A stretch of DNA of 64,000 nucleotides from Candidatus Bathyarchaeia archaeon (GCA_038870975.1 JAVZJD010000002.1:288001-352000); one strand, 5' to 3'. Positions 24,957 to 41,646 are shown, counted from the first letter of the stretch. Notes: a model not told the origin generated them from the letters alone. Made by a program: numbers and translations.

Positions 24957-25378
24957 CTCTATGCATTTAAGCCAAGGATTGACCACGTTCTCACCGGCGT
25001 TCAGACTTCTAATGATTTATAAGCTTCTCAACTTCCACAGATTACATGGAAGTTTCACATCTAATGGACTCGTCCTATAGCGGTCATTCTCCTGACCTCT
25101 AATCCAATTGGGTCAACAGAGTATTTGCAGAGCAGATTTATTGGAGCACCTGGACGACGTTCGGTTGAAATCTCCATATAATCGTGCATTTTTACAATTA
25201 CCTCCTCTTCCTCTTTTAGAAAGAGAAATAATTATAGTTTCTCTACGACACCATACAACCTTACAACGATTCGCATTGAAATACCATCAAAATATGTAAT
25301 CTAGAGTTTAAAACATTGAAGATACTTTATTGGAAATCTCAAGAAACTATTTATTCCCCTGTAGCATTATTTAAAATT

Positions 25379-26515
25379 GTGGATTTCCAACGAGTTGGAG
25401 TGGCAGATCTAATTCTCCACAACGGTAAAGCTCCTTCATGGTTAACGAGGCGAATGATCAAATTAGGCAGTATTGTGGTTAAGTTGATCATAGATGAGCA
25501 GGGCCATCGAGAATTTCTACGAAGACTTTCCAACCCGGTTTGGTTTCAAGCTTTATCTTGTGCACTTGCCTATGATTGGGATAGTAGCGGTACTACAACG
25601 GTGCTTTGCGGCGTTTTAAAGAACGTACTTAATGGGCAGGATTTGGGTGTTAAAGCTGTTGGAGGAAAGGGGAAACTTTCACAATTAAGCCTCAATGAGA
25701 TAGATGAGTTGAGTAGAACTTACGATTTCTCTGAGGAGGAAAGTAAACGGCTTAAGTATGCGAGTAGAATGACTGCGAAGATCGATAATGTAGCTGTTCA
25801 AGCAGGTTATAGGCTCTATCACCACATGATGTTTATATCAAACGATGGGGATTGGACTGTTGTCCAACAAGGTATGAATCCCAATTTGAAGACGGCTAGA
25901 AGGTTTCACTGGCTTTCGGGAAGTTTTAAGAGCTTCGTCGTTGAACCACACAGCGGAATAATGGGCAGTATGGTACATAAAAACGTCCTCAATACTATAG
26001 CCAAAGATTCTGAAGACTTCAGGAGGTTGGTAGTAGACCTTGTTAAAGACGGGGCTGAAAAACTAAGAAGAACACTTCTATCGATTCGAGTAGAGGGGCA
26101 GGAGACGCTCTCTAAATGGATGTTTGGTGTAACGGAAACATCCATTATAAAGGCGTATAGAGTAGATCCTAAAAGCGTAAATTGGGATGCTCTTAAGAAA
26201 GCCTATGAAGCCACTCCGAACAACTATGAAGAACTTTTAGCGGTCAGAGGAATAGGTCCATCAACTGTTAAAGCTCTTGCGCTAATTTCAGAGCTTGTTT
26301 ACGGTGTTGAACCCAGCTGGAAAGACCCTGTTAAGTATACTTTTGCATTCGGAGGGAAGGATGGTATTCCATTCCCCGTGAAGCGACGAGAGTACGATGA
26401 AGCTATAAGTTTCCTTGAAGATGCAATATTTAAAGCCAAACTTGGAGATAGGGATAAGATTGAAGCCCTTAAAAGACTTAAAAACTACGCCTCAAAAATT
26501 CAACTCGTATTATGA
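25379..26515 (+). CDS. DUF763 domain protein
   Basis: ADL.LHNGKAPSWL, WFQAL..YDWDSSGTTT, AKIDNVAVQAG, FAFGGKDG. Confidence 0.88.
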   Translation: MDFQRVGVADLILHNGKAPSWLTRRMIKLGSIVVKLIIDEQGHREFLRRLSNPVWFQALSCALAYDWDSSGTTTVLCGVLKNVLNGQDLGVKAVGGKGKLSQLSLNEIDELSRTYDFSEEESKRLKYASRMTAKIDNVAVQAGYRLYHHMMFISNDGDWTVVQQGMNPNLKTARRFHWLSGSFKSFVVEPHSGIMGSMVHKNVLNTIAKDSEDFRRLVVDLVKDGAEKLRRTLLSIRVEGQETLSKWMFGVTETSIIKAYRVDPKSVNWDALKKAYEATPNNYEELLAVRGIGPSTVKALALISELVYGVEPSWKDPVKYTFAFGGKDGIPFPVKRREYDEAISFLEDAIFKAKLGDRDKIEALKRLKNYASKIQLVL

Positions 26516-26558
26516 ATAGATTTTACATGAGAAGTGAAGCGTAATCCACTTTGACTAC

Positions 26559-27308
26559 TTATTGAAAGTATTGGATATTGAGCCTATCTACAACGTTAGA
26601 TAAATTCAATCCTCTATCTTCAGCTATCATTGTTAGGTGGCGCACAGTTGTAGGCTCTATACTTAGAAGTCTACACACAGCCAAGTCTACTGTGAATGGA
26701 TCTACGCCGAATAGGACTTCATCCTTTACTTCAGCTATATGTAAACCTTTAGGGACTACTTTAACGAGGTCTGCCAAAACTTTATCAACACCCTTCGCAT
26801 GATAATTTAAAAACTTAGATTTAACAATCAAAAGTCCAAACATGTTCTTAACGCAGCACGTCAATCTTGTCGTTGGATGGCTTCCAGCTCTGGCGAGGTT
26901 TATGAATAACCCTGTTTCCATCAAAACTGATGGAAGAGGGAGAGAAGCACATGCTCTATGTTTTATTACGTTGACGTTAACTTTACCGTACTCAGAGAAA
27001 TCTACGAGTTTAACACCTTGAATATCCCTCAATTTCTCATAAAGAGATAGGCTTTTAAACCTCTCTTTGGGTGAATGCATGGTGCTTGCTGTATCACCTA
27101 CGTAAATAGTTTTCGCATAATTCCCAGCGTATAACATCGTAGCCTTTAATAGGTCGGGGTTGGGAGGGTAGAAGCCGCAGATATTGGGTTTAACTACGGC
27201 TACATCGCATCGACTTGGCTTAAAGCCAGTTGCTTCAGCTAATTGGTTGAAAGACTTTATGGCTGAATCGATGTCTGCGATAACTATTGTGAAAATTTCA
27301 CCAGACAT
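26559..27308 (-). CDS. DUF362 domain protein
   Basis: VVKPN, INL..SH..LTCCVKNMFG, DPFTVD. Confidence 0.8.
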   Translation of the reverse strand: MSGEIFTIVIADIDSAIKSFNQLAEATGFKPSRCDVAVVKPNICGFYPPNPDLLKATMLYAGNYAKTIYVGDTASTMHSPKERFKSLSLYEKLRDIQGVKLVDFSEYGKVNVNVIKHRACASLPLPSVLMETGLFINLARAGSHPTTRLTCCVKNMFGLLIVKSKFLNYHAKGVDKVLADLVKVVPKGLHIAEVKDEVLFGVDPFTVDLAVCRLLSIEPTTVRHLTMIAEDRGLNLSNVVDRLNIQYFQ

Positions 27309-27393
27309 CTAACTATTTAATAGCTCGATGTCTTTTTTTAAGTTTCCCAAGAGGATAAAACTTTATCTCAACTTATCTCGAAGACTAATAGAT

Positions 27394-28308
27394 ATGGATA
27401 AACCCGTAGTAGCGGTATCTAAAGGAGCCAACAGGTATGATACGGTTAGGAAAACCCTAGAACTCATATATGACGATATAGCTGAAAGTATTAAAGGAAA
27501 ACGTAAAATCCTCATAAAACCTAACTTCGTATCGGATAGCATACAACTAGCCGCTACGCATGTAGACGTCGTTAAGGCAATCCTCGATACGATCACACCT
27601 CTAACCACTGGAGAAGTTCTAATAGGAGAGGGGTCTTACGGAGATACATTTAAAGGGTTCAGAAGCTTCGGCTACTTGAAGCTTAGAAGCGAGTATGGAG
27701 TAGAACTAATAGATTTAAACAGCGACGAATACGTCGAAGTTAGTATCTTCGACGGGAAGTTTAGAGAATTCCCAATAAGAATTTCTAAAACCGTCTATGA
27801 GAGTGATTACAGAATATCAGCCGCAGTCATGAAAACACACGACTTTGTCATCGCAACATTATCCATAAAAAACATGGCTGTTGGAAGCATAATTAAACCT
27901 TTTAAAAGTAGAATTCATCAAGGCTACCCAGCTATAAACCTGAACATATACAAAATAGCCAAATTCATACCTATACATTTAGCAGTCGTAGATGCTTTCA
28001 AAGCTATGGAGGGGGATGGGCCGGTTTGGGGTAGTGAAGTTTCAATGGGGGTGGCATTAGCTGGTTTAGACCCTGTAGCAGTGGACTCAGTAGCCGCTTA
28101 TATTATGGGGTTTGATCCAATGAACATAGGGTATATATACTATTGCCACAAGTTTGGGCTTGGAAACGCAAACATCGAAAACATAAAAATAATCGGTGAA
28201 AACATTGAAACAGTAAAGAGGAGGTTTAAACCTCATAGGAGCATCGATAAACAGCTCAATTGGAGGATCCCTCAAGAACTACTATCCCAATTAGATCTAG
28301 ATCCCTAG
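27394..28308 (+). CDS. DUF362 domain protein
   Basis: ILIKPNFV, IGEGS, MKTHD..TLSIKNM, MEGDGP, DPVAVD. Confidence 0.88.
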   Translation: MDKPVVAVSKGANRYDTVRKTLELIYDDIAESIKGKRKILIKPNFVSDSIQLAATHVDVVKAILDTITPLTTGEVLIGEGSYGDTFKGFRSFGYLKLRSEYGVELIDLNSDEYVEVSIFDGKFREFPIRISKTVYESDYRISAAVMKTHDFVIATLSIKNMAVGSIIKPFKSRIHQGYPAINLNIYKIAKFIPIHLAVVDAFKAMEGDGPVWGSEVSMGVALAGLDPVAVDSVAAYIMGFDPMNIGYIYYCHKFGLGNANIENIKIIGENIETVKRRFKPHRSIDKQLNWRIPQELLSQLDLDP

Positions 28309-28955
28309 GTTGAATTTCTCCATTTGTACTCCCACGGGTTTATATTCCACTCTCTAAGCCTTCTTTTAATGGTTTTAGAACTTACACCCAGAATTTTAGC
28401 TATAGCCGACATCGACAATCCCTTTTCTAAATAGCTTACAACGGTTTTTTTATCAATCGTCTTCATAGGTCTACCGATACGTTTCCCTTCAAGCTTAACT
28501 CTCTTCATTCCCTCCTTAGTCCTCTGACTAAGTAACTCCCGTTCTCTTTCAGCAACCCAGCTGAATATGGCGAGTACAAGCTTACGAATCGACGGGTCTA
28601 ACGTCTGTAGAAAACTCTCTTTAGGACTTATACTGACAAGGGGGATTTCAAGTGTTTCAAGCGATTTTACAGCTTCTAGGGTTTCATAGAAACTTCTACC
28701 TATCCTTGAAAGCTCGTATACGATTGTGACCCTGGGTTTAGGTTTTAAATTTACAACCTCTTCTACAAGCCTTTTAAATCCCTGTCTTCTAAGAGGCGGA
28801 ATTTTACCGCTTATAGCCTCATCTTCATAATACTTGATAACCAAATAGCCGTTATTATGAGCCCATTCATCGATAGCTATTTTCTGATTTTCTACAGTCT
28901 GTTCACCAGTACTAACGCGCACATAGGCTATAGCTGGCTTAAACTCACTAGACAA
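28305..28955 (-). CDS. Serine recombinase (resolvase/invertase) with C-terminal HTH
   Basis: AYVRVST (catalytic Ser)..Q..SG..R.GF..LSRIGRS..AERERELLSQRTKEG..GRP, C-terminal HTH (SMSAIAKILGVS). Confidence 0.93.
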   Translation of the reverse strand: MSSEFKPAIAYVRVSTGEQTVENQKIAIDEWAHNNGYLVIKYYEDEAISGKIPPLRRQGFKRLVEEVVNLKPKPRVTIVYELSRIGRSFYETLEAVKSLETLEIPLVSISPKESFLQTLDPSIRKLVLAIFSWVAERERELLSQRTKEGMKRVKLEGKRIGRPMKTIDKKTVVSYLEKGLSMSAIAKILGVSSKTIKRRLREWNINPWEYKWRNST

Positions 28956-29139: not shown

Positions 29140-29793
29140 TCATAGACTTAAGTTTATGAATACTAAGTAAAAACCAACTGATATAACAATTAAGGCTTCA
29201 ATTTTCCCAATATATGGAAGTATGATTTTAAGTTTATTCATTAATATATTTCCAATAAAAGAAGAAGAAACTACTAATAAAAACATTGGGACAACCATAC
29301 CTGTTGAAAATAGCGTGAAAAGAATCAAAGTTTCCCCAGTAATTAGAGAAGCAGAAAGAATCATAAGTAGAATTGGTAGAGAGCAAGTTAAAGAGTTGAA
29401 TGCGTATATTGATCCATAGAGGAATTGTTCGATGCAGAGGTTTCTTATTCTTCCCAAACCTTTAAATCGTATTTGAATTGACATTACATTCTTACCGCTT
29501 AAAGCGATTAATCCAAAAAATAATAGTGAAACTCCAAGAATGATGCCTACAATCGGAATGAGGGAAATGACTTTTTCAACTAAAGAGATAGGTAGTAAAA
29601 GAAAGATAAACAATGTTGATTCAATACCTAAGATAAACATTAAACCTGTTTTTAAACCATCAATCAGTGAATTCTTCATCCGTCCCCCATCAATCCACCG
29701 TGTAATATACGCTGGAAGCAATGGAAATGCACATGGCGATAGGAACGATGAAAAACCACCTAAAAAAGCCAAAGTTGCTAAAGCCAGATTCAA
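29140..29793 (-). CDS. ccdA: CcdA/DsbD-beta type membrane disulfide reductase
   Basis: FLSPCAFPLLPAYI and SLTCSLPI (two conserved Cys), six TM. Confidence 0.88.
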   Translation of the reverse strand: MNLALATLAFLGGFSSFLSPCAFPLLPAYITRWIDGGRMKNSLIDGLKTGLMFILGIESTLFIFLLLPISLVEKVISLIPIVGIILGVSLLFFGLIALSGKNVMSIQIRFKGLGRIRNLCIEQFLYGSIYAFNSLTCSLPILLMILSASLITGETLILFTLFSTGMVVPMFLLVVSSSFIGNILMNKLKIILPYIGKIEALIVISVGFYLVFINLSL

Positions 29794-29800
29794 AGCCTCA

Positions 29801-30307
29801 CTACTCCATCTCGTTTAACAATTGAGAAATTTCAAATATCAATTCTGACGCTTCAACTACGCCTTCATGTCGAAATCTAATCCTACCTTTATAGTCTATG
29901 ATAACGGTTGTCGGCAATACTTTAACACTGTAGTTCAGACCGACTTCATAGCTTTGAGCAAATATCCAAGTAGCTCCAAGTTCATCTCTATAGTCTCTAA
30001 GCGTATTCGAGATGTCTGACGGGTCAATACTTATGGACACTATTATAATCGATGGGTTTCTAAATTGTTCATGAACTTTCTTAAGTTCTTCAACTTGAGC
30101 CTTGCAATGTCTACACCATGTTGCCATAAACTCTAACACGACGATTTTTCCTTTACATTCGCTTAGTCTAAAGGTTGCGCCGTCTACATCTGTAATTGTG
30201 AACGAAGGAGCATCTGCAAACTTCCCCTCCTCTAAGAATGCTGATAGTAGGATTGCTCCAGCAACTGAAGGCAGAATTATCAATAAGATTAAGACCTTGG
30301 CGTCCAC
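29801..30307 (-). CDS. Membrane-anchored TlpA/ResA thioredoxin-like protein
   Basis: N-terminal TM, APSFT..GKIVVLEFMATWCRHC, LPTTVIID. Confidence 0.9.
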   Translation of the reverse strand: MDAKVLILLIILPSVAGAILLSAFLEEGKFADAPSFTITDVDGATFRLSECKGKIVVLEFMATWCRHCKAQVEELKKVHEQFRNPSIIIVSISIDPSDISNTLRDYRDELGATWIFAQSYEVGLNYSVKVLPTTVIIDYKGRIRFRHEGVVEASELIFEISQLLNEME

Positions 30308-30541
30308 ACATCCTGTAGTAGTAAATTGAAATTTAAAGATATTTCTTGCAGAGAATTCTTACTAGAGAATTATGCTATTAGAGCCCGATCTCAAAATCTC
30401 CATACGGATTCATAAAAATAATACGTTGAAAAGCTACTGCATTAAACAATGTAATAGTGGCTGTTGAAGCGTTTTTAACTTTGGAATTGATAAAAATTTA
30501 AAAAAGAGAAGATGTTCTTTTAGCTGTCAGAGATTCTATAC

Positions 30542-33500
30542 ATGGGGTCTATAAGATTCAGGACAGTTTTAAACATGACATTACTACTGTTAGCTACTGC
30601 TTCATCCTTACCATTAAAGATTCTATGCAACTTTGTCCAAAACTCATGGGGAGGTTTAGCGTCTATAGAAATGGATAATGTCATGAGACATGTCGAGTTC
30701 TTTTCATCAGTTGAAAGCAGGATGACAGGCTACCTCGGTTTCTACAAGGCTTCAGAGTATATAACTGAGGAATTTAATAAAACGTTAGGAAATGTTGTTA
30801 TAGAGGAATTTGAAGTAACAGCTCCTATTCAACATTTTGCAGAAATCTATATAGAATCTCCAGAACGTAGAGTTTTAAAGGCTTATACCTTCTGGCCAAA
30901 TTTAGCTGAGTCGTGCTCTACGTCAGAGGATGGATTAAGAGGTCCACTATACTATGTAGGCTATGGAACTCTGAGTGAAATGAATGGGAAGCCGATAGAT
31001 GGTTCTATCGTTCTAATGGAGCTGAACAATAGGTGGTTCTGGAGAATAGCTCTCAATATGGGTGCTAAAGCAGCTATCTTCATAGAGCCTGAAGACTCCT
31101 TCCGAGGTGACTACTGGGCGAAGACTCTGCAAATACCGATAAATTTCCCTAGACTTTACATAACACGGGAAGATGGAGAATATTTGAAGAAGCTCGTTGA
31201 GAACTATGGAAATCTAACGGTAACAGTAAAGTCTTATACAACTTGGGAGAAAGTTAAAGCCTATAATATATTAGCTGAAGTTAAAGGTACTGACCCTGAG
31301 CTATCTAAGGAATACATAGTCCTTGCGGCATACTACGACTCACTTTCAATAGTCCCAGCTCTAGCCCCCGGAGCATCAGAATCATTAGGAATATCGCTTC
31401 TACTAGAGCTGGGTAGAGTTTTCAAGGAAAATCCTCCTAAGAGGAGCATACTTTTCGTAGCTTTAGGAGGACACGGTCTGGGATTGGCTGGTGCTAGAGA
31501 ATTCGTGTGGAAGCATTTCCAAGAAATAGGCGAGAAGTACAAGCTATTTATAAGCTTAGACCTCTCTACTGAAAGCTCAGACTTAGCCGTACAGTTTTAC
31601 GGAGGCTTCTACGCGCTCCAGGGGAGCGTGCCAGGATATGAGACAAAATTTCAGTGGTTGAGAGATAAAATCTTCAATGAATACCTTAAACTCTATAGAG
31701 CCTATGGAGGAAGTATTAGGCTTTTCGACTCGCTCGCCTTAACAAATATTTACTATGAGCCTACTCCATTATACGTCGACAGCGAACCTTTCGTATTAGC
31801 CGGAGGCATTGGATTCACTTTCAAAACGTTCAACGTTTTCAGAAGACACCTTTTTACACCTTTGGATAGGCTAGAGGACGTAGAAATAGACAGATTGAAA
31901 CCACAAGCTGAGTTTATAGCTCTAACCCTTAGGATGCTCTGCGAAGAGGCTAGACTCGCAGTACACTCCAAGCCTACAGTGATAGGGGTGGGGTATGGAT
32001 TCGTCACTTTAAGCGGTTATGTTCAAGAGTATAACTTGACGAAAGGATGGTATCAGAAAGTCTCCAATGCACTCGTACAACTACCCTTCTGGCCTACATT
32101 AATAGTTGAAAAAACAGATGAAAACGGATATTTTCAAGTTAAAGGCCTCAGGGCAGGAGCATACTACTGGTTTAACGGTTTCATAGTCGACCAATATGGA
32201 CACGTAATAGGCACAAACGAATATGGAGGCTTTGCCCCCCCACTGCCTAATCTTTTCGGAATAACACTGTACAGACCAGATGCGTTTGTAAATATCAAGG
32301 TGTTCCGATGTGGAAGTATACATATATCCTACGTAGTAGACCCGAGAACCTTTTACACACCCTACGGTTCATACACTGTGTTAAACAATTTCAAAACCCA
32401 CGTGACTTTAATCACCTATGGTCCCGTCTACACAGACGGATATGACTTTCAGATATTCATACCTCCAGATACTCCCGTGGAGGTATTCCTAAGGACAGGA
32501 GGAACTCAAGAAAATTACGCAATTTTACTTAACATAACAGAGTCCAATAAAGATGGTACAGGATACGTAGTTAAACCCGGAGAGACCCTAAGAATAAGAA
32601 ACCTAGTTTTAGAGGCTCCCAGAAGCTTCTACATTTTAAACGAAGAAAGACTGAAAACCCTCCACAGCTTCAACGCCTTCAGCATAAGACCTGAAGAATA
32701 CCACAGGCAAGCCCAAGTCTTGTTGCAAGAAGCCTATGACGCGTTTAAGAGTATGCGTTATAGTGAAGGCTACTATAAAGCTATACATGCCTGGTGTTTA
32801 GAAGCCCATGCTTACAGCGCCATAAAAGACTTCATTATAGACCTAGCCTATAATTCATCCCTAACATACATTTTTACGCTACCTCTGATTATAATGGTAA
32901 CAATGGGGCTTTTAAAGGGGAAAAGCGGAGGGTTGAAGATTTTAACATTCCAATTGATACTCTCGTTATTCTTCATGATGCTCCTATACTTATACAGCCC
33001 TGGTTTCAACGTCGCAACAAACATCTATGTGATGCTGGGCTCCCTTTTCATAGTCACTCTGATAGTTCTTGTCTTAATAGTTCTATGGAGGGAGTTTCTG
33101 ACAACGTTAAACTTTATCAGGAGAAAGTTCATGAGAATCCCCCATGAGGAAAGCGACGCTAGATTAGGTGTTAAAGAGCTAGCGTTTAGAATAAAAAGGT
33201 TTCTTGAAGAAGATAAGGCCAGGTTTTTAACGATAATTATTATCTCCTCTCTAGCTACATGCACTTTCCTACTAACGTCATTCTGCTCAAGTTGTACTTA
33301 CGTTTTTGAAACGCCTGTGAGTTTTAAAGCTGAAGAGTGTAGAATTCTTCTTAGAAAATGGCCTTGGGATGCATTTGCCGAAAGACATGTAGATCTTTTA
33401 CGCATAGAGTTTGCAGATAATGCATTAATTTCTTGCAGAGTGTGGATGTATCCCTCCTATCAAGAACTTAGGATGGATGGAAATTGTACGGTCAAAGGGT

Positions 33501-34807
33501 TTCTAGGACTGTCTTATGAAGAGTTTCTAGTGACGCAGATAAACGGCACTATTGAGCAGGGTGGATGGTTTGAAAGAAACGACCTATTTGCATGCATAGT
33601 AAGCGATGAAATTGCAAAGGCTTTAAACGTTAAACCTGGTGATAGAATTGAAATCTGGGGAATCCCTCTAAAGCTCAGAGGGATATTCAACAGCTCAAAA
33701 ATGGATTCTTTAAGGGATTTAGATGGGGAACCTATAACGCCTAAAGACCTATTTGCTCCATATGGTGAAGAGAGAGCAGTACATCTACCAGCTTCCTCAG
33801 TCGTTATAGTTCCCTATGAGCTGGCTATGAAGATGGGTGGTACCATATATAGTGTAACGATAAAACCCTATGATTTAGACCTCATACACCACATCGCAAG
33901 GTCTCTAGCTTACAGATCTCTTGGAGTTTATGTGTATGCTTCCAGTTCGGAATATGTAAAGCTTTACTGGTCAAGGATGGGTTATAGAATTATATTCCTA
34001 GATGAGTCTTTAACCGTCTTTCTGAGTTTAAGCTTCATAGTGGTAGGGTTCTACACAAGCTATAGAGTAAGATCTCGATACGTAGATGTGAGGGCGAGAA
34101 CAATACTGATTAAAGCAGTTTTACTCGGGCTTACAGCATATCCAGTAGGTCTATTCTTCGGACAATTATTATCCATATTTTTCTACAGAATTGGGATTCT
34201 ACCTGGGGATGTAAAGCCTAACTTTTCCACCTTTTCACTACTAGTTGCTCTACTTCCAGCAATAGCAACTTCTCTCTCATTTTACGGAAGTTCCTTCCTC
34301 TCTTTCGTGGAGAAGGCATTGTTGGAAACGTTGAGGATGAGGGAAGTTTTGAGACATGGTAGAGAATACCGATTAAGCAAAAAGGTCCTAAGTGGTTTAG
34401 AAGAGAGGAGTGTTTTAGGAATCATGGCTTTCATAGGTGAGCAGTTCAAATTATACATGGAAGAGCGCTATGAAGGCTTTCAAACTTTAGATATAGGTTT
34501 CTTTAGCGTAGAAAATTTAAAGAGGCTTAAACTGGTTGTGCAGATGGCTCCATGGGAGTTTGGCATAATCTCAAACACAACGCTTGAAGCGATCAAAGGT
34601 GAAAATGAACTGTACGATTTAGTAATATCTGTAAGGTGTAGGGGCGGTCTTGAGGATAGACATTTAGGAGGAATTTTTAATAAAATCTTAACCATGTTGA
34701 ATCAATGGAGCCGTTTGGATAAGTCTTCACAGAAATACTACATTGAAAATGCTTTGACGATTTTAGGAGAGCATGTTATGAGGAGGGATCTGCATGAGAG
34801 GCTTTAG
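30542..34807 (+). CDS. Large membrane protein: PA/M28-like ectodomain fused to MacB/FtsX-type permease
   Basis: Signal peptide; SRMTGY.G, NILAEVKG..IVLAAYYDS..APGA (M28 fold); TM bundle; MacB-like extracellular domain (IVSDEIAKALNVKPGD, DLDGEPITP); further TMs. Confidence 0.85.
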   Translation: MGSIRFRTVLNMTLLLLATASSLPLKILCNFVQNSWGGLASIEMDNVMRHVEFFSSVESRMTGYLGFYKASEYITEEFNKTLGNVVIEEFEVTAPIQHFAEIYIESPERRVLKAYTFWPNLAESCSTSEDGLRGPLYYVGYGTLSEMNGKPIDGSIVLMELNNRWFWRIALNMGAKAAIFIEPEDSFRGDYWAKTLQIPINFPRLYITREDGEYLKKLVENYGNLTVTVKSYTTWEKVKAYNILAEVKGTDPELSKEYIVLAAYYDSLSIVPALAPGASESLGISLLLELGRVFKENPPKRSILFVALGGHGLGLAGAREFVWKHFQEIGEKYKLFISLDLSTESSDLAVQFYGGFYALQGSVPGYETKFQWLRDKIFNEYLKLYRAYGGSIRLFDSLALTNIYYEPTPLYVDSEPFVLAGGIGFTFKTFNVFRRHLFTPLDRLEDVEIDRLKPQAEFIALTLRMLCEEARLAVHSKPTVIGVGYGFVTLSGYVQEYNLTKGWYQKVSNALVQLPFWPTLIVEKTDENGYFQVKGLRAGAYYWFNGFIVDQYGHVIGTNEYGGFAPPLPNLFGITLYRPDAFVNIKVFRCGSIHISYVVDPRTFYTPYGSYTVLNNFKTHVTLITYGPVYTDGYDFQIFIPPDTPVEVFLRTGGTQENYAILLNITESNKDGTGYVVKPGETLRIRNLVLEAPRSFYILNEERLKTLHSFNAFSIRPEEYHRQAQVLLQEAYDAFKSMRYSEGYYKAIHAWCLEAHAYSAIKDFIIDLAYNSSLTYIFTLPLIIMVTMGLLKGKSGGLKILTFQLILSLFFMMLLYLYSPGFNVATNIYVMLGSLFIVTLIVLVLIVLWREFLTTLNFIRRKFMRIPHEESDARLGVKELAFRIKRFLEEDKARFLTIIIISSLATCTFLLTSFCSSCTYVFETPVSFKAEECRILLRKWPWDAFAERHVDLLRIEFADNALISCRVWMYPSYQELRMDGNCTVKGFLGLSYEEFLVTQINGTIEQGGWFERNDLFACIVSDEIAKALNVKPGDRIEIWGIPLKLRGIFNSSKMDSLRDLDGEPITPKDLFAPYGEERAVHLPASSVVIVPYELAMKMGGTIYSVTIKPYDLDLIHHIARSLAYRSLGVYVYASSSEYVKLYWSRMGYRIIFLDESLTVFLSLSFIVVGFYTSYRVRSRYVDVRARTILIKAVLLGLTAYPVGLFFGQLLSIFFYRIGILPGDVKPNFSTFSLLVALLPAIATSLSFYGSSFLSFVEKALLETLRMREVLRHGREYRLSKKVLSGLEERSVLGIMAFIGEQFKLYMEERYEGFQTLDIGFFSVENLKRLKLVVQMAPWEFGIISNTTLEAIKGENELYDLVISVRCRGGLEDRHLGGIFNKILTMLNQWSRLDKSSQKYYIENALTILGEHVMRRDLHERL

Positions 34808-36695
34808 AGGCCTCAGCCCTAGAGTATTGGTTATAATGCTTTTCACAGCCTTTGTAGTAGAGCCGATCGTAATATATAACTACCTCATAGGCGGTGCCTT
34901 TGGAGGCTTAGAGGCTTGGATTATAACGATACTTCTCGTTGAGATAACAAGTATAACTGGGAATGTTTTGACTATGCAAGAGGCGTTTATGATAAATACA
35001 GTTGTTGGGTTGATATTAGCTAGGTCTCTATTGTTTCCAACGACGCTCCTTTATGATATGTTCTATGCCTTTCACCAGGTGACGAGGGATTTCGGATATG
35101 CTAGTCAATTGCCTTACTGGTTTACAGTGCCTCCTGAATCCCTAGTTGCGAAGGGTCTTCTTAGGACATTTTTCACGATTGAATGGGCTATTCCATTAAC
35201 GGTACTGCTAACACAGATCACAATAAACTTGGTAATGGCATTATCTATGGGGATTATATGCTATGAGATATACGTGGTTGTCGAAAAATTGGAGTTCCCA
35301 CTTCAAGCAGCGGCAGCTGAAGGTATAATTACGGTTACAGGAGGAGACCCAGAGAGAAGTAGAGTTTTTGCAATATCGGCTTTCATAGGAGGGATATATG
35401 CGCTTTTAAGCTGGTTCATTCCCGTGGTCGTAAACTGGCAGATTCCATCTCTAGTCTACATATTTGACTGGGAGTTTACAAATTTAATAGAATATTGGCG
35501 TAATATACCCATTCTTCCGGGTGCGTCGCTCGCCATAAACGTAAACCTTTTAACTTTTGCATCTGGGCTTGTAATTCCTCTAGATGTATGTATCTGGATG
35601 TTTATAGGCTCTCAAATCCTATACTTCATAGGGAATGCTCTCCTAGTTAGATGGAACCTCTGGACTCAGGTTGAGGTTGGAGCATGGTACCAAGGAGCAG
35701 GAGTATACTATAACGTTAGATGGTCTCAGTTCAACTATTGGGCTGCTTTAGGCTTAGGTTTTGCATTGGCAGGTTCCATTATTCCAATCATAATGCGGCC
35801 TAGTGGAATAGCTAAGGCATTTAAATCCTTGTATAGGCTGGTTGAGTCTGAACGAACTGGAGATATCGTACCCTTATGGCTAGTCTTAACGATGTTTATT
35901 TCAGCATCTATAACCTACGTTGTTCTACTTGTATTTCTTCTTCCAAAAATCACTTACGGACAGTTACTGCTCTTAGCATTGACATTCATAGGTGGGAGCT
36001 TTTTCATAACACTTATATCTGCTACTACGACTGGTGTAACAAGTTATGGATTTAACATCCCATATTTAAGGGAGGGCATCATCTTAACTACTAGATACCC
36101 AGGACTTGAAATATGGTTTTCACCTGTTGGAATAAATATTGACGGTGCAGGCATAGCCGCCTCCATGAAGACAGCTACGATGACTGGTGTAAAATTAAAA
36201 GAGTTTTTAACGGCATATCTTATCTCCATTATTCTAGGACTTCTATCTAGTCTTATATTCACACAGGTGTTCTGGAGTTTAAATCCAATACCCTCATGGG
36301 CCTACCCAAATACAGCCTATGGATGGCACTTCTCAGTCTACGACCGAAACTTAAATCTTAAATGGTTTATGTCGGGTCAAATACTTAAACCGCCTCTAAT
36401 TCTCGGCGGCTTCATAGCCGGAGCCGGACTTTACTTGTTATTCAACTTTTTGGGTGTTACAAACTGGTTTTTTGCGATGCTCTCAGGCTTTGTTACGTAT
36501 CCCAATGTAGCATTATCAATTATGCTGAGCGCTTTCATCAGCAGGTATGTTTTTGCTAGAATTTTTGGATTAGAAACTTGGAGAAAATATGCGCCAAATG
36601 TGACAGTAGGATTATCGGCGGGATGGGGAATTGTAACTACACTAGGTGGAATAATAAATCTGATTTCAAGAAGCGCATGGATATTGCCATATTAG
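34794..36695 (+). CDS. OPT/YSL-superfamily transporter
   Basis: About 14+ TM; LTMQE, EKLEFP motif, PIPSWAYP; overlaps upstream gene. Confidence 0.75.
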   Translation: MRGFRGLSPRVLVIMLFTAFVVEPIVIYNYLIGGAFGGLEAWIITILLVEITSITGNVLTMQEAFMINTVVGLILARSLLFPTTLLYDMFYAFHQVTRDFGYASQLPYWFTVPPESLVAKGLLRTFFTIEWAIPLTVLLTQITINLVMALSMGIICYEIYVVVEKLEFPLQAAAAEGIITVTGGDPERSRVFAISAFIGGIYALLSWFIPVVVNWQIPSLVYIFDWEFTNLIEYWRNIPILPGASLAINVNLLTFASGLVIPLDVCIWMFIGSQILYFIGNALLVRWNLWTQVEVGAWYQGAGVYYNVRWSQFNYWAALGLGFALAGSIIPIIMRPSGIAKAFKSLYRLVESERTGDIVPLWLVLTMFISASITYVVLLVFLLPKITYGQLLLLALTFIGGSFFITLISATTTGVTSYGFNIPYLREGIILTTRYPGLEIWFSPVGINIDGAGIAASMKTATMTGVKLKEFLTAYLISIILGLLSSLIFTQVFWSLNPIPSWAYPNTAYGWHFSVYDRNLNLKWFMSGQILKPPLILGGFIAGAGLYLLFNFLGVTNWFFAMLSGFVTYPNVALSIMLSAFISRYVFARIFGLETWRKYAPNVTVGLSAGWGIVTTLGGIINLISRSAWILPY

Positions 36696-36704
36696 GAGGA
36701 GGAG

Positions 36705-38639
36705 ATGTTGAAGAAAGGAGGTATTCAATTAAATACGCCGAGAATACTGTTAGCACTAACGCTAACGGCTTTTTGGAGTGTCTTTGGAGCTATTTTAACA
36801 ATAGTATTAGGAAGCTCACATGGATATACTTCTTACGATGGATTTGCTCTATCCACTACTACCACTCTACTAGCATTACATGCTGTAGGCTTATATAAGA
36901 AGGAACCTATTAGTGTTGAAACATACGCTTCGGTTTTGATAGCCCTCTCCTCCTCCACAATTGTATGTAGTTTCTGGAGTTTTAGTAGCACCTTCATAAG
37001 AAGCTTCTATATTAGGGTCATGGAGCCGTATAGAACGCTCTTTGGAATACATATGCCATACTTCTGGGCTCCAGAGACAGAAACTATAAACTATATACTT
37101 CTTGGGGGGAAAGAATTTCCGGTTTTAGAATTAACTCCCTCCATAATCTTCTGGATTTGTCTAACAGTTTTCTCCTACATATTCTTCATAGGATCTGCTT
37201 TAATATTTAGAGATGCTTTCTTAGAGGTCGAAAAACTCCCATTCCCCCATACTCAAGTTTACTTAGAATTAACTCCGTACTCTTCCATGCGGCGATTTTC
37301 GAAGGGAACATTTAAGGCAGGGCTAATATTCGTATTAATCCTTCAAGTACCCTATATAATTAGGCAGGCTATACCATGGTTTCCAGTTGTACCAATAAAT
37401 TGGGGGCAGGTTTTCCCATTTACTGTAGACTTCTCTGAGGTTAAAGAGGTCAGAGAAATATATTTACCCAATTCCGTTTTAACGTTCGGATATAATCCAT
37501 GGCATATAGCTCTGGCTTATCTAGCACCTATGGATACGACTCTATCGGTATGGCTTTCATTTTTACTTCTCCAAGTGATCTACCCCGCTCTAGCCACATG
37601 GATGGGAATAATACCTATGAATACTTCTAGGGTTACTTTTCAATCTGCTAGAAACTGGCGTTGGATTAACCTTATGTACGGACCACTTAAACCCTATATA
37701 ACTATAGGATTAGGTGGGCTTATAGGTATAGGTGTTTGGCCTATAATACTCGACTTAGCATTTAGAGGGGGACGAAGAGTTTTCTTTGAAAGAACTGGAG
37801 TGATTTCGATATTACTAGGCTTAGCTGGCTTATCATACCTAGCTTATTTGAACAATTCCCCTATACCTCAGACACTAGTTGGGTTTTTAATTCTACTGAG
37901 TATTGCTTTAGGCTTAATAAGAATCCGGGGCGAGGCGGGGCTTTTAATACCACCCATTTCAAAGCCTCTAAATACCGCGTTCTGGTATAGGCTTTATACT
38001 TGGAAAACCATGGACTCAACCTACTTTGCATACTTGCACACTTTTGGGGGAATTTATAGCTCTGAAGCTGGAATTAGCTTTATGTCAATACCATCTCTAT
38101 CGATGGAGACACTTAAGACAATGAAGAGTTGGAAGATAGAAGATATGGGTGGGTTTTACATTCTCTCTCTAGCGTCGATAATAGTAGCGTCCTCTGTATA
38201 CTTTCTATGCTCACTAGAGCTCTTCAATGCATACGGAGTTTCCGCATTCCCAGGGTCGAAAAGACTATTCTATGAAACGGTAAAAGATGAATCAGACTTC
38301 CTTATAACAGCTGTTTCAACGTACCCACCTTGGCCCTGGTGGCAAAACATAGTATCTGGCTTATTAGGCGTAGGCATAATAATGATATTGGGATTTACAT
38401 TTCCATGGTTTCCCATAACACCAGAGGGGTTGGTAATATCATCTACGGAGGTTGCAATGCAAGGATTCTGGAGTAGCTGTTTAATAGCTTGGATTCTGAA
38501 GAAACTGACTTTCGCTGTAGGAGGGGCCTATCTTTACGAGCGCGATGGAAAATCTATGGCTATAGGGATAATACTTGGCTACATTTTAACAACGGTATTA
38601 AGTATACTGGTATCTTTAATCTTAGTAGTCTACCATTAA
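36705..38639 (+). CDS. OPT-like multi-pass membrane protein (DUF6785/DUF6784-like)
   Basis: Many TM; EKLPFP motif shared with neighbour; WILKKL..GG..LY C-terminal motif; SD GGAGGAGG. Confidence 0.7.
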   Translation: MLKKGGIQLNTPRILLALTLTAFWSVFGAILTIVLGSSHGYTSYDGFALSTTTTLLALHAVGLYKKEPISVETYASVLIALSSSTIVCSFWSFSSTFIRSFYIRVMEPYRTLFGIHMPYFWAPETETINYILLGGKEFPVLELTPSIIFWICLTVFSYIFFIGSALIFRDAFLEVEKLPFPHTQVYLELTPYSSMRRFSKGTFKAGLIFVLILQVPYIIRQAIPWFPVVPINWGQVFPFTVDFSEVKEVREIYLPNSVLTFGYNPWHIALAYLAPMDTTLSVWLSFLLLQVIYPALATWMGIIPMNTSRVTFQSARNWRWINLMYGPLKPYITIGLGGLIGIGVWPIILDLAFRGGRRVFFERTGVISILLGLAGLSYLAYLNNSPIPQTLVGFLILLSIALGLIRIRGEAGLLIPPISKPLNTAFWYRLYTWKTMDSTYFAYLHTFGGIYSSEAGISFMSIPSLSMETLKTMKSWKIEDMGGFYILSLASIIVASSVYFLCSLELFNAYGVSAFPGSKRLFYETVKDESDFLITAVSTYPPWPWWQNIVSGLLGVGIIMILGFTFPWFPITPEGLVISSTEVAMQGFWSSCLIAWILKKLTFAVGGAYLYERDGKSMAIGIILGYILTTVLSILVSLILVVYH

Positions 38640-39576: not shown

Positions 39577-39812
39577 TTGCTCTGCATTCGTAAGGCAGAA
39601 GTTAAGGATGCCTTAGAAGTTTTATCTATCTATTATAATATCGAAGCAATACTGATGCTTATCGTAAAATCATTCCAGCAGAATACTTTAAAGAGAGTGA
39701 GGAAATGCAATTTTATGTTTACGATTTGGAAGGCACTATTTTGGGTGTTGCTGCTCCGTAGGTTGAGAAAGGTCATGCTAACGTTCGTTGTGTCTACGTT
39801 CTACTGGAGAGT
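39577..39812 (+). pseudogene. Second GNAT acetyltransferase remnant (N-terminal part)
   Basis: IRKAEVKDALEVLSI / SNTDAYRKIIPAEYFKE..FYVYDLEGTILGVAAP*VEKGHANVRCVYVL, truncated at the PaREP1 3' end. Confidence 0.6.
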
Positions 39813-40279
39813 TTTTCGCCGAGGGATGAGACCAGCTTATTCACTTCTTCCAGCGCATCTTTAACGTCTTCTTTTGTTGCAAGGTTCTCGTAGAAATTTT
39901 TATGCATTGAGTCTGCCTTCATGAAGGCTGTTCTAACCCATTCGCCAAGCTCCTTTACAACTTCATTCTTATATGTCCAGAGGTCTGCGTGGCTCTCAAT
40001 CTTTCTGCCTCCCTTGTAGAGAGCGTGGGCCTTTATTGCTAGGGCACATGCACCCCAAATCTTCTCTGAGGCTTGTTTAAGATCCTCCCTCTCAAACTCT
40101 AAGCGAGCCTGATGAATTAAGTCTGCTGCACCCTCAATATATTTTCTGAAGGATACTGAAGGATCTAAGTCGCCGACGGCTATTTCAAGTATATACTCGC
40201 ATAAACTTATCCCCCTCTCTTCAGCTTTCCTTCTTAGCTCCTTAAGCGCAACTTCAGGCACAAATACTTGGATACTCAT
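39794..40279 (-). CDS. PaREP1-family (HEPN-like) protein with N-terminal RHH-like segment
   Basis: EDLKQASEKIWGACALAIKA, SHADLW, ADSMHKNFYE. Confidence 0.9.
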   Translation of the reverse strand: MSIQVFVPEVALKELRRKAEERGISLCEYILEIAVGDLDPSVSFRKYIEGAADLIHQARLEFEREDLKQASEKIWGACALAIKAHALYKGGRKIESHADLWTYKNEVVKELGEWVRTAFMKADSMHKNFYENLATKEDVKDALEEVNKLVSSLGEKLSSRT

Positions 40280-41508: not shown

Positions 41509-41572
41509 GGCAAATCAAGCACCGAGAAAAGGAAAACAAGCCTTATTCAAATTCGTCTAACCCGTGGTATAG

Positions 41573-41646
41573 CGGGCCCGGGGGGAATCGAACCCCCGAC
41601 CAACAGGTTAAGAGCCTGCCGCTCTACCGTTCTGAGCTACGGGCCC
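41573..41646 (-). tRNA. tRNA-Lys(CTT)
   Basis: GGGCCCGTAGCTCAGAACGGTAGAGCGGCAGGCT CTT AACCTGTTGGTCGGGGGTTCGATTCCCCCCGGGCCCG. Confidence 0.97.

Follow-up and report, generated by a model that had tools for sequence, protein, structure and literature searches.

The window analyzed here, a whole stretch of 64,000 nucleotides from Candidatus Bathyarchaeia archaeon (GCA_038870975.1, JAVZJD010000002.1:288001-352000), contains at positions 30542-38639 three genes, called the triad below, that are on balance probably one of two copies in this genome of a conserved ATP-assisted, receptor-mediated uptake system with OPT-fold permeases. All three are co-directional open reading frames (ORFs) on the + strand. 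Gene 1 (30542-34807) encodes P0001, a giant membrane protein of 1421 amino acids (aa) with a PA/M28-like ectodomain on a MacB/FtsX-type base; gene 2 (34794-36695) encodes P0002 (633 aa), a permease of predicted OPT/YSL fold whose family has no Pfam model; and gene 3 (36705-38639) encodes P0003 (644 aa), a DUF6785 and DUF6784 protein that is also predicted to have the OPT/YSL fold. Genes 1 and 2 overlap by 14 nucleotides, and genes 2 and 3 are separated by 9 nucleotides, exactly as had been described in an earlier interpretation made from the DNA alone (the sequence-only reading), which called the three genes tightly coupled. Compared with species-level relatives of 83-93 % identity, genes 1, 2, and 3 are under strong purifying selection, with ratios of nonsynonymous to synonymous substitution rates (dN/dS) of 0.04-0.09 and a whole-length value of 0.065 for gene 1, all of which are approximate, the synonymous divergence (dS) from these relatives being about 1. 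The three genes are therefore not chance ORFs. Upstream of gene 1 lies an AT-rich intergenic region of 234 bp (30308-30541) between divergent ORFs, which is likely, from its sequence and the flanking ORFs, to be the putative promoter region of gene 1.

Hydropathy divides P0001 into two units of the same plan, each with a transmembrane segment (TM), an ectodomain, and three further TMs. An N-terminal anchor (residues 14-32) is followed by about 740 residues without a TM and by three TMs at residues 773-848 (TM cluster A, 32858-33085, + strand), which bracket ectodomain 1 together with the anchor according to both hydropathy and the family alignment. After a cytoplasmic linker come one TM (residues 895-913), a second loop of about 235 aa, three TMs (residues 1150-1246), and a tail of about 170 aa. 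The second unit (residues 895-1246, 33224-34279, + strand) is of the FtsX type, with a MacB_PCD-like ectodomain 2 between its first TM and the other three and with a degenerate coupling helix. The cytoplasmic C-terminal domain (residues 1251-1421, 34292-34804, + strand) is specific to the family, in which it carries the motifs LAPFD and RKQxLxWRxL, and is strongly diverged in the window copy; an Atlas feature search with the same domain from the second gene 1 of this genome gave no usable match. In a Pfam scan, P0001 matches M28 (PF04389) at residues 242-347 (E 6.5e-11, 42.8 bits against a cut-off of 21.3, first half of the model only) and MacB_PCD below threshold at residues 981-1055 (E 0.02), the latter match being stronger in homologues, and the same scan of P0001 gives no match to FtsX (PF02687). 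Full-length gene 1 homologues with 21-29 % identity, found in Bathyarchaeia and in the cultured bacteria Desulfovibrio sp. UCD-KL4C and Desulfacinum hydrothermale, do carry PF02687 FtsX and PF12704, and FtsX is also detected in the gene 1 paralogue in the same genome (PF02687, E 5.2e-14). Judged by these full-length homologues and the in-genome paralogue, P0001 is clearly homologous to FtsX permeases, with a domain that has become degenerate in the window copy. The sequence-only reading had described a 1421-aa protein with an ectodomain of about 750 aa and a MacB/FtsX-type membrane part; the topology and the homologues agree with it, while Pfam finds no FtsX domain in P0001 itself. Among the profile searches it had proposed, PF04389 was found in P0001 and DUF6784/DUF6785 in P0003, and neither PF02687 in P0001 nor PF03169 in P0002 or P0003 was found; an NCBIfam scan of the three proteins gave no useful match. 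Shorter relatives of gene 1, of about 1000-1300 aa, are encoded at G000:C2:760110-763298 (L103:4111-7299) and G000:C1:851083-854700 and also in loci L058, L067, L075, L080, and L099; a Pfam scan of L103:4111-7299 finds FtsX only, and several short relatives directly adjoin triads in other genomes.

The PA and M28-like domain makes up residues ~41-480 of P0001 (30662-31981, + strand) and aligns to the PA-domain aminopeptidases 2ek8 and 6hc6 and also to AAP, GCPII, TfR, and nicalin. The canonical catalytic set of M28 is absent from it. The His of the HxD motif is Tyr in P0001 and variable across the family, the Glu-Glu pair is Gly-His in 12 of the 14 aligned gene 1 members and Gly-Tyr in the other two, and the last His (the equivalent of H256) is Phe in P0001 and Phe or Trp in most aligned members. 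The Asp positions of the two-zinc site are partly kept; no other ligand and no catalytic Glu is retained. In the gene 1 family, a conserved His takes the place of Glu152, and the equivalent of Asp179 is mostly kept, and these two residues may form a remodelled single-metal site. Because the canonical M28 catalytic residues are absent, a binding rather than a hydrolytic role of the domain is plausible, which suits the proposal of the sequence-only reading that a peptidase-fold ectodomain serves in capture.

A Pfam scan of P0002 gives no match, and P0003 matches DUF6785/DUF6784 (PF20581/PF20580) with 53.1 and 48.7 bits against cut-offs of 25 and 26.4; neither protein matches OPT (PF03169) at E<=1. 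BLASTP finds no similarity between gene 2 and gene 3, and a comparison of their family profiles with hhalign gives a probability of 99.2 % (E 6.8e-20) over 530 columns, so that by profile comparison and fold the two genes are remote paralogues. The AlphaFold2 model of P0002, built with 84 homologues, has a mean predicted local distance difference test score (pLDDT) of 90.3 and a predicted template modeling score (pTM) of 0.91. In a Foldseek search of the PDB, its only strong match is barley Yellow Stripe 1 (HvYS1), the one OPT member of solved structure, which has core and scaffold domains and inverted repeats; the match has E 6.8e-10 and a template modeling score of 0.62-0.66, the next one having E 0.11 and a score of 0.1, and VIA-align gives HvYS1 with Z 24.1 and a root mean square deviation of 3.8 A over 540 residues, the next match having Z 5.8. 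The AlphaFold2 model of P0003 is weaker (pLDDT 67, pTM 0.77), and its sole Foldseek match is again HvYS1 (E 5.4e-06, template modeling score 0.63-0.69). The identity of the window proteins to HvYS1 is 10-16 %, and the DUF6785 alignment, used as a sequence profile against the PDB, retrieved no match, the link to HvYS1 being made by fold comparison only. One of the 24 DUF6785 sequences scanned, 21 of which are from this genome, matches OPT at 2.2e-8 and so connects the family to PF03169 in sequence; the closest Atlas clusters are labeled 'peptide transporter', OPT-bearing, and DUF6785, with OPT in 15-21 % of their members. The proposal that both proteins of about 640 aa are OPT-superfamily paralogues is thus borne out by the predicted models and by remote homology, the levels at which OPT/YSL membership holds, and it finds no counterpart in the PF03169 profile or in BLASTP. 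An exhaustive profile search shows how large the gene 2 family is, finding 700 cluster representatives when the threshold is E<=1e-3 and 295 when it is E<=1e-30; word-based homologue searches, which return 4-5 matches (four for gene 2), strongly under-report these families.

A motif of the form EKL[E/P]FP had been noted as common to the two proteins, and it was located in both. EKLEFP of gene 2 (35283-35300, + strand) has E164, L166, F168, and P169 invariant or nearly so, and EKLPFP of gene 3 (37230-37247, + strand) has E176 invariant and P179 and P181 nearly invariant in the 24 DUF6785 sequences. In the P0002 model, the EKLEFP loop spans residues 164-168 between two helices. EKLxFP and PIPSxxYP are the two most conserved motifs of P0002 and lie in loops between long helices of the model, where they may form a putative conserved substrate site. 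The permease core motifs are retained in genes 2 and 3 of the window.

The combination of genes is widely conserved. A set of 65 genomic loci identified by the gene 2 profile and six loci from metagenome or isolate assemblies was annotated with local hidden Markov models (HMMs); they come from Bathyarchaeia, Thermoproteales/Thermofilaceae, Brockarchaeota, Nitrososphaerota, and Planctomycetota/Phycisphaerae, plus two from Desulfobacterota. Gene 1 adjoins gene 2 in 66 of the 67 testable loci, archaeal and bacterial, and a DUF6785-type gene adjoins this pair in 47 of 54, in agreement with the similar gene combinations that the sequence-only reading mentioned for other archaea and bacteria. The gene order varies (g1-g2-g3, g3-g1-g2, g3-g2-g1, and divergent), and since the linkage is kept while the order is shuffled, it reflects functional linkage rather than shared operon descent. 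No further gene is conserved across the triad loci, the commonest neighbor family being present at 8 of 71. Recurrent neighbors are GFO/IDH/MocA oxidoreductases, URO-D-like proteins, B12-radical SAM proteins, M1 and C25-like peptidases, fucose-isomerase-like proteins, and DegT. B12-binding radical SAM genes are found near triads in at least four archaeal loci (L001:11154-12965, L079, L087, and L089), a PqqD-like gene is present in L001, and a PqqD gene is present in one bacterial locus (L033:18891-19283). These B12-radical SAM and PqqD neighbors, which are not conserved across loci, may link the system to a modified peptide.

The sequence-only reading held that the system has no ATPase. None is encoded within the window, nor is a small FtsX protein, and relatives of the triad lead to a different picture of the family. 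In both Desulfobacterota operons, a small FtsX protein of about 220 aa and an ATP-binding cassette (ABC) ATPase are encoded with gene 1, the DUF6785 gene, and gene 2, in that order. Within 10 kb, a small FtsX protein or an ATPase accompanies the triad at 9 of 11 bacterial and 2 of 59 archaeal loci, which answers the survey for co-occurrence with or without an ATPase that had been suggested. Small FtsX and ATPase genes are also near the triad in the archaeal genomes G046 and G098; in G046, a complete genome (locus L104), a small FtsX gene and then two ATPase genes lie ~4 kb from it. In the genome of the window, a 209-aa FtsX protein encoded at C1:804654-805283, one of three phmmer matches in the genome, matches the bacterial small FtsX with E 1e-33, and the adjoining gene at C1:805359-806081 encodes an ABC ATPase that matches the ATPases of the bacterial operons with E 7e-102 and 5e-110. 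This pair (C1:804654-806081, L036:6655-8082) sits between the genes for the Lhr helicase and threonyl-tRNA synthetase, with no other permease gene among its annotated neighbors. A second related MacB-type ATPase is encoded as an orphan among housekeeping genes at C2:380213-380953 (L102:3214-3954). The small FtsX protein has four TMs and keeps the canonical coupling-helix motif, and the Walker A, signature, and Walker B motifs of the ATPases are intact. In a small tree without support values, the C1:805359 and C2:380213 ATPases fall in two archaeal clades that are triad-linked elsewhere, and this placement, like the two successive ATPase genes of G046, suggests heterodimeric nucleotide-binding domains with dispersed genes in this genome.

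The distribution of the motor genes agrees with this assignment. Among 301 Thermoproteota genomes, gene 2 is present in 54 and a full-length small FtsX orthologue in 67, and the orthologue is found in 53 of the 54 gene 2 carriers versus 14 of the 247 non-carriers. The sole gene 2-positive genome without small FtsX, G101, has only fragments of gene 2, one of them with in-frame stops, which fits a loss of triad and motor together. Within the mixed families f7 and f27, small FtsX occurs in exactly the gene 2-positive genera, and its distance from gene 2 is 5-10 kb in families f29 and f7. The small FtsX protein and the MacB-type ATPases encoded off-locus are thus the candidate motor of the triad, the association being phyletic. 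The claim of a system lacking an ATPase therefore applies to the window, and in this genome the small FtsX and ATPase that characterize the family are off-locus and co-occur with gene 2. As a practical warning, the lack of an ATPase in an operon does not mean independence from ATPases when motor genes are dispersed.

The close relatives found in the searches are metagenome-assembled genomes named Candidatus Bathyarchaeota or Bathyarchaeia, in line with a place of this genome in Bathyarchaeia. The 1.85-Mb genome contains 21 DUF6785 genes, of which only the one at 36705-38639 is in the window. A second complete triad, with canonical FtsX features, is located at C1:540508-549297. The 19 solo DUF6785 copies (for example, in L016-L032) adjoin genes for GH4, GH38 alpha-mannosidase, GFO/IDH/MocA, DegT, URO-D-like, and PA14 proteins. 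Genes for glycoside hydrolases, GFO/IDH/MocA oxidoreductases, sugar isomerase-like proteins, and some peptidases are neighbors both of solo DUF6785 genes and of the triads of other genomes. In the gene 3 tree, the solo copies form one clade with gene 3 of the second triad, and by this placement they look like a lineage-specific expansion from a triad-linked ancestor and are probably a family of carbohydrate or oligomer importers. Bathyarchaeia are abundant archaea of sediments and hot springs, and the presence of 21 OPT-fold genes in a genome of 1.85 Mb suggests that such proteins are a main route by which they acquire organic substrates.

The window triad stands on a long stem branch (0.99-1.01 substitutions/site). 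In the gene 2 tree, its clade is sister to that of the second triad within a group made up entirely of Bathyarchaeia, with a support of 0.999, and on this phylogeny the window triad is an old, fast-evolved paralogue and not a bacterial import. A bacterial origin, hinted at by the gene 3 tree, was rejected on the nesting of the window clade in Bathyarchaeia in the gene 2 tree; the gene 3 placement is probably a long-branch effect. The long branch, the loss of the FtsX Pfam signal in P0001, and the DUF6785 score of P0003, the weakest among the 21 copies in the genome, would also be expected if the triad were a decaying, non-functional duplicate, but all three ORFs are intact, the core motifs of the permeases are kept, and the dN/dS values against relatives at a dS of about 1 are low both overall and in every region of gene 1 (0.04-0.17 within the window clade). 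A decaying paralogue was rejected on these dN/dS values and is hardly credible.

What has changed in the window copy is its cytoplasmic side. The coupling region reads VYERxREI...GLxP in most aligned gene 1 members and SYRVRSRYVDVRAR in P0001. Both this motif of the coupling helix and a basic motif of TM1 have been lost from P0001 and from P0163, a near relative, and the two carry a 6-aa deletion; gene 1 of the second triad has the coupling-helix variant YYRTREI, and that of L003 is divergent. When regions were scored with HMMs built from 21 other gene 1 members, P0001 scored like the other members in the PA/M28 part of ectodomain 1 (1.11 versus 1.06 bits/residue), in the remainder of ectodomain 1 (0.77 versus 0.81), and in ectodomain 2 (0.83 versus 0.78), and far below them in the linker with TM5 (0.06 versus 0.94), in FtsX TM6-8 (0.22 versus 1.12), and in the C-terminal domain (0.19 versus 1.00). 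The cytoplasm-facing parts of gene 1 in the window are remodelled and not decaying, because the same parts are still constrained within the window clade, where the C-terminal domain has a dN/dS of about 0.07; the outer domains are conserved as elsewhere in the family. Coupling of the window copy to a motor is probably indirect, altered, or lost.

In the last of these cases, the window copy would be free of an ATPase, with the giant protein as a receptor or scaffold only and the OPT-fold carriers driven by an ion gradient. The absence of motor genes from the window, the lost motifs with the deletion, the low scores of the three inner regions next to the normal scores of the ectodomains, and the purifying selection that still acts on the remodelled parts all fit such a protein. 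However, a small FtsX orthologue is kept in every sampled genome of the window genus, the sister relationship to the second triad's clade derives the window copy from a coupled ancestor, the conservation of the remodelled cytoplasmic parts within the clade suggests that a partner still binds there, and sequence divergence alone cannot demonstrate the loss of ATPase binding. We regard an ATPase-free window copy as unlikely, if deserving of attention. The ATPase-free mode put forward in the sequence-only reading thus does not describe the system as a whole, and it may describe this paralogue, whose coupling helix and cytoplasmic face are remodelled.

The ATP-assisted uptake system proposed here would have five parts. 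The first is the giant protein, in which a non-catalytic, PA/M28-like head that would serve as receptor is combined with a periplasmic core domain of the MacB type and a MacB/FtsX membrane unit; the second is the small four-TM FtsX protein and the third one or two MacB-type ABC ATPases, which in this genome would be supplied off-locus by C1:804654-806081 and the second ATPase at C2:380213-380953; and the fourth and fifth are the two OPT/Yellow-Stripe-fold permeases, which are remote paralogues. Type VII ABC systems such as MacB, LolCDE, and FtsEX work by mechanotransmission. The ectodomain of the giant protein would bind an extracellular oligomeric substrate, which may be a peptide, a glycan, or a glycopeptide, and the small FtsX protein would pair with the FtsX unit of gene 1 beneath an ATPase dimer. 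ATP hydrolysis would move the ectodomain by way of the FtsX helices, so that substrate is captured or extracted and passed to the permeases for uptake. The OPT-fold proteins would form the translocation path as elevator-type, ion-coupled carriers, possibly as a heterodimer of the products of genes 2 and 3, which is conceivable because HvYS1 is a dimer. Such a heteromeric pair would be common and not obligatory, since loci L001, L035, and L080 have no third gene.

Import is the favored direction, given OPT precedent and a gene context of catabolic type. To our knowledge, the OPT/YSL proteins characterized so far are all importers. HvYS1 works as a homodimer and imports by an elevator-type mechanism, with substrate sites at helical hairpins (PMC9691689). 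The opposite direction would make the triad part of export or envelope assembly, in which the OPT-fold proteins move a glycoconjugate, a lipid-linked glycan, or a modified peptide outward, and the type VII part extracts or expels it at the outer face in the manner of MacB or LolCDE. The outer face is indeed where type VII ABC systems typically work on their substrates, glycosyltransferase genes (GT28_C/GT4) precede and PqqD or GT2 genes follow the two Desulfobacterota loci, and genes for a PMT-type glycosyltransferase, B12-radical SAM, and PqqD-like proteins occur near some archaeal loci. These glycosyltransferase and radical SAM neighbors are not conserved, however; the commonest recurrent neighbors are of catabolic type (GFO/IDH/MocA, glycoside hydrolases, and peptidases), and no adaptor or outer membrane partner is annotated in the bacterial loci that were read. 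Given also that HvYS1 and the characterized relatives known to us work as importers, export is improbable.

A sensor or regulator, in which the ectodomain of the giant FtsX protein senses a ligand or controls an extracellular enzyme and the OPT-fold proteins are its regulated targets, would have parallels in FtsEX and BceAB, which are type VII ABC systems with regulatory roles; the ectodomain lacks a canonical catalytic set, and one bacterial locus is followed by genes for a PAS histidine kinase and a sigma-54 regulator. No signaling gene is conserved beside the module, though, and the near-obligate linkage of gene 1 to a dedicated permease family, found almost only beside it (66 of 67 loci), points to one physical machine. 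We consider a regulatory role very improbable.

Several observations weigh against the ATP-assisted, receptor-mediated uptake system proposed above. The degenerate coupling helix of P0001 weakens the ATP-driven part for the window locus. Small FtsX occurs without gene 2 in 14 genomes, and the motor is therefore not confined to carriers of the triad; related genomes are not independent samples, for which reason the association between small FtsX and gene 2 is strong and not a statistical one. A few loci lack the third gene, as noted above. The complex of the giant FtsX protein, the motor, and the OPT-fold proteins is a predicted one. Direction and substrate come from family precedent and loose gene context alone; no catabolic gene neighbors the triad in the window annotation, and the glycosyltransferase and PqqD-like genes adjoining bacterial loci also fit an export or envelope role.

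A stronger form of the same proposal is that the system is a hybrid transporter. In it, elevator carriers of the OPT fold would be physically joined to an ATP-driven mechanotransducer of the type VII ABC kind that bears a receptor-like pseudo-peptidase head, and a single uptake machine would combine primary with secondary energization; we put this forward tentatively, as a possibility short of probable. If it is true, the window copy would be a natural derivative with a rebuilt motor side, and coupled and uncoupled forms could be compared within one genome.

The surroundings of the triad include genes of several other kinds. Upstream are a DUF763 protein with an HhH motif and then two divergently arranged DUF362 genes (window 25316-28308), all of uncharacterized families, a serine recombinase of the resolvase type (28305-28955), and, divergent from gene 1, an AhpC/TSA-type thioredoxin-fold gene (168 aa) and a 217-aa gene of unknown function (29140-30307). 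In genus-level relatives L038-L040, the genes upstream of gene 1 match this last pair in size and order and cluster together, by a comparison of size and order only. Several genes upstream of the window triad cluster with their counterparts in L038-L040, and any island here is therefore not recent. Downstream are a PaREP1/HEPN gene (39794-40279) and tRNA-Lys(CTT) (41572-41646).

The components can be compared with several known systems. Like the type VII ABC systems MacB, LolCDE, FtsEX, BceAB, and HrtBA, the gene 1 family has PF02687 FtsX and a MacB_PCD-like domain between TM1 and TM2, a coupling-helix motif, a candidate dedicated ATPase of the MacB type, and another, smaller FtsX subunit, which recalls heterodimers of the LolC/LolE type. 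Unlike them, gene 1 adds a PA/M28-like ectodomain of ~740 aa bracketed by four further TMs and a conserved cytoplasmic tail of ~170 aa, is linked almost obligatorily to an OPT-fold permease, has its ATPase genes dispersed in most archaea, and in the window copy has degenerate coupling motifs. With OPT/YSL transporters (TC 2.A.67, PF03169; HvYS1, PDB 7WSR/7WST), genes 2 and 3 share the predicted fold over the whole chain, a similar length, and conserved loop motifs between helix pairs. They differ in that the window proteins have no PF03169 match, that the gene 2 family has no Pfam model, and that a type VII ABC component is encoded alongside them, an arrangement described for no OPT protein in the literature found. 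Within DUF6785/DUF6784, gene 3 is a member and gene 2 a remote relative; the family is listed without a function, whereas here gene 3 has an OPT fold in a predicted model, and the genome carries 19 of its 21 copies as solo genes.

The head of gene 1 resembles nicastrin, nicalin, and the transferrin receptor in its PA and M28 architecture and in the loss of metal ligands and the catalytic Glu, and the PA/M28-like domain matches nicalin and TfR weakly in sequence, alongside its matches to active aminopeptidases. No specific relationship follows, however, since the best matches are bacterial PA-domain aminopeptidases. In TRAP and TTT systems, which are binding-protein-dependent secondary transporters, an extracytoplasmic receptor likewise serves a secondary carrier; the likeness is conceptual, with no relation in sequence or fold, and the receptor here is membrane anchored and part of an ABC mechanotransducer. 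Literature searches for DUF6785, DUF6784, PF20581, PF20580, or a combination of FtsX, OPT, and M28 returned nothing relevant. Type VII ABC systems are not known to transport substrates across the membrane in which they sit, and OPT transporters are known as ion-coupled carriers that act alone. An obligate partnership of the two across several archaeal and bacterial phyla would, if true, be a new way to build an uptake or export machine, and it would provide a function for DUF6785/DUF6784 and for the Pfam-less gene 2 family with its ~700 cluster representatives; the two cultured bacterial carriers make the system experimentally testable. The components come from known superfamilies, and their combination and the remodelled copy in the window are new variations on them.

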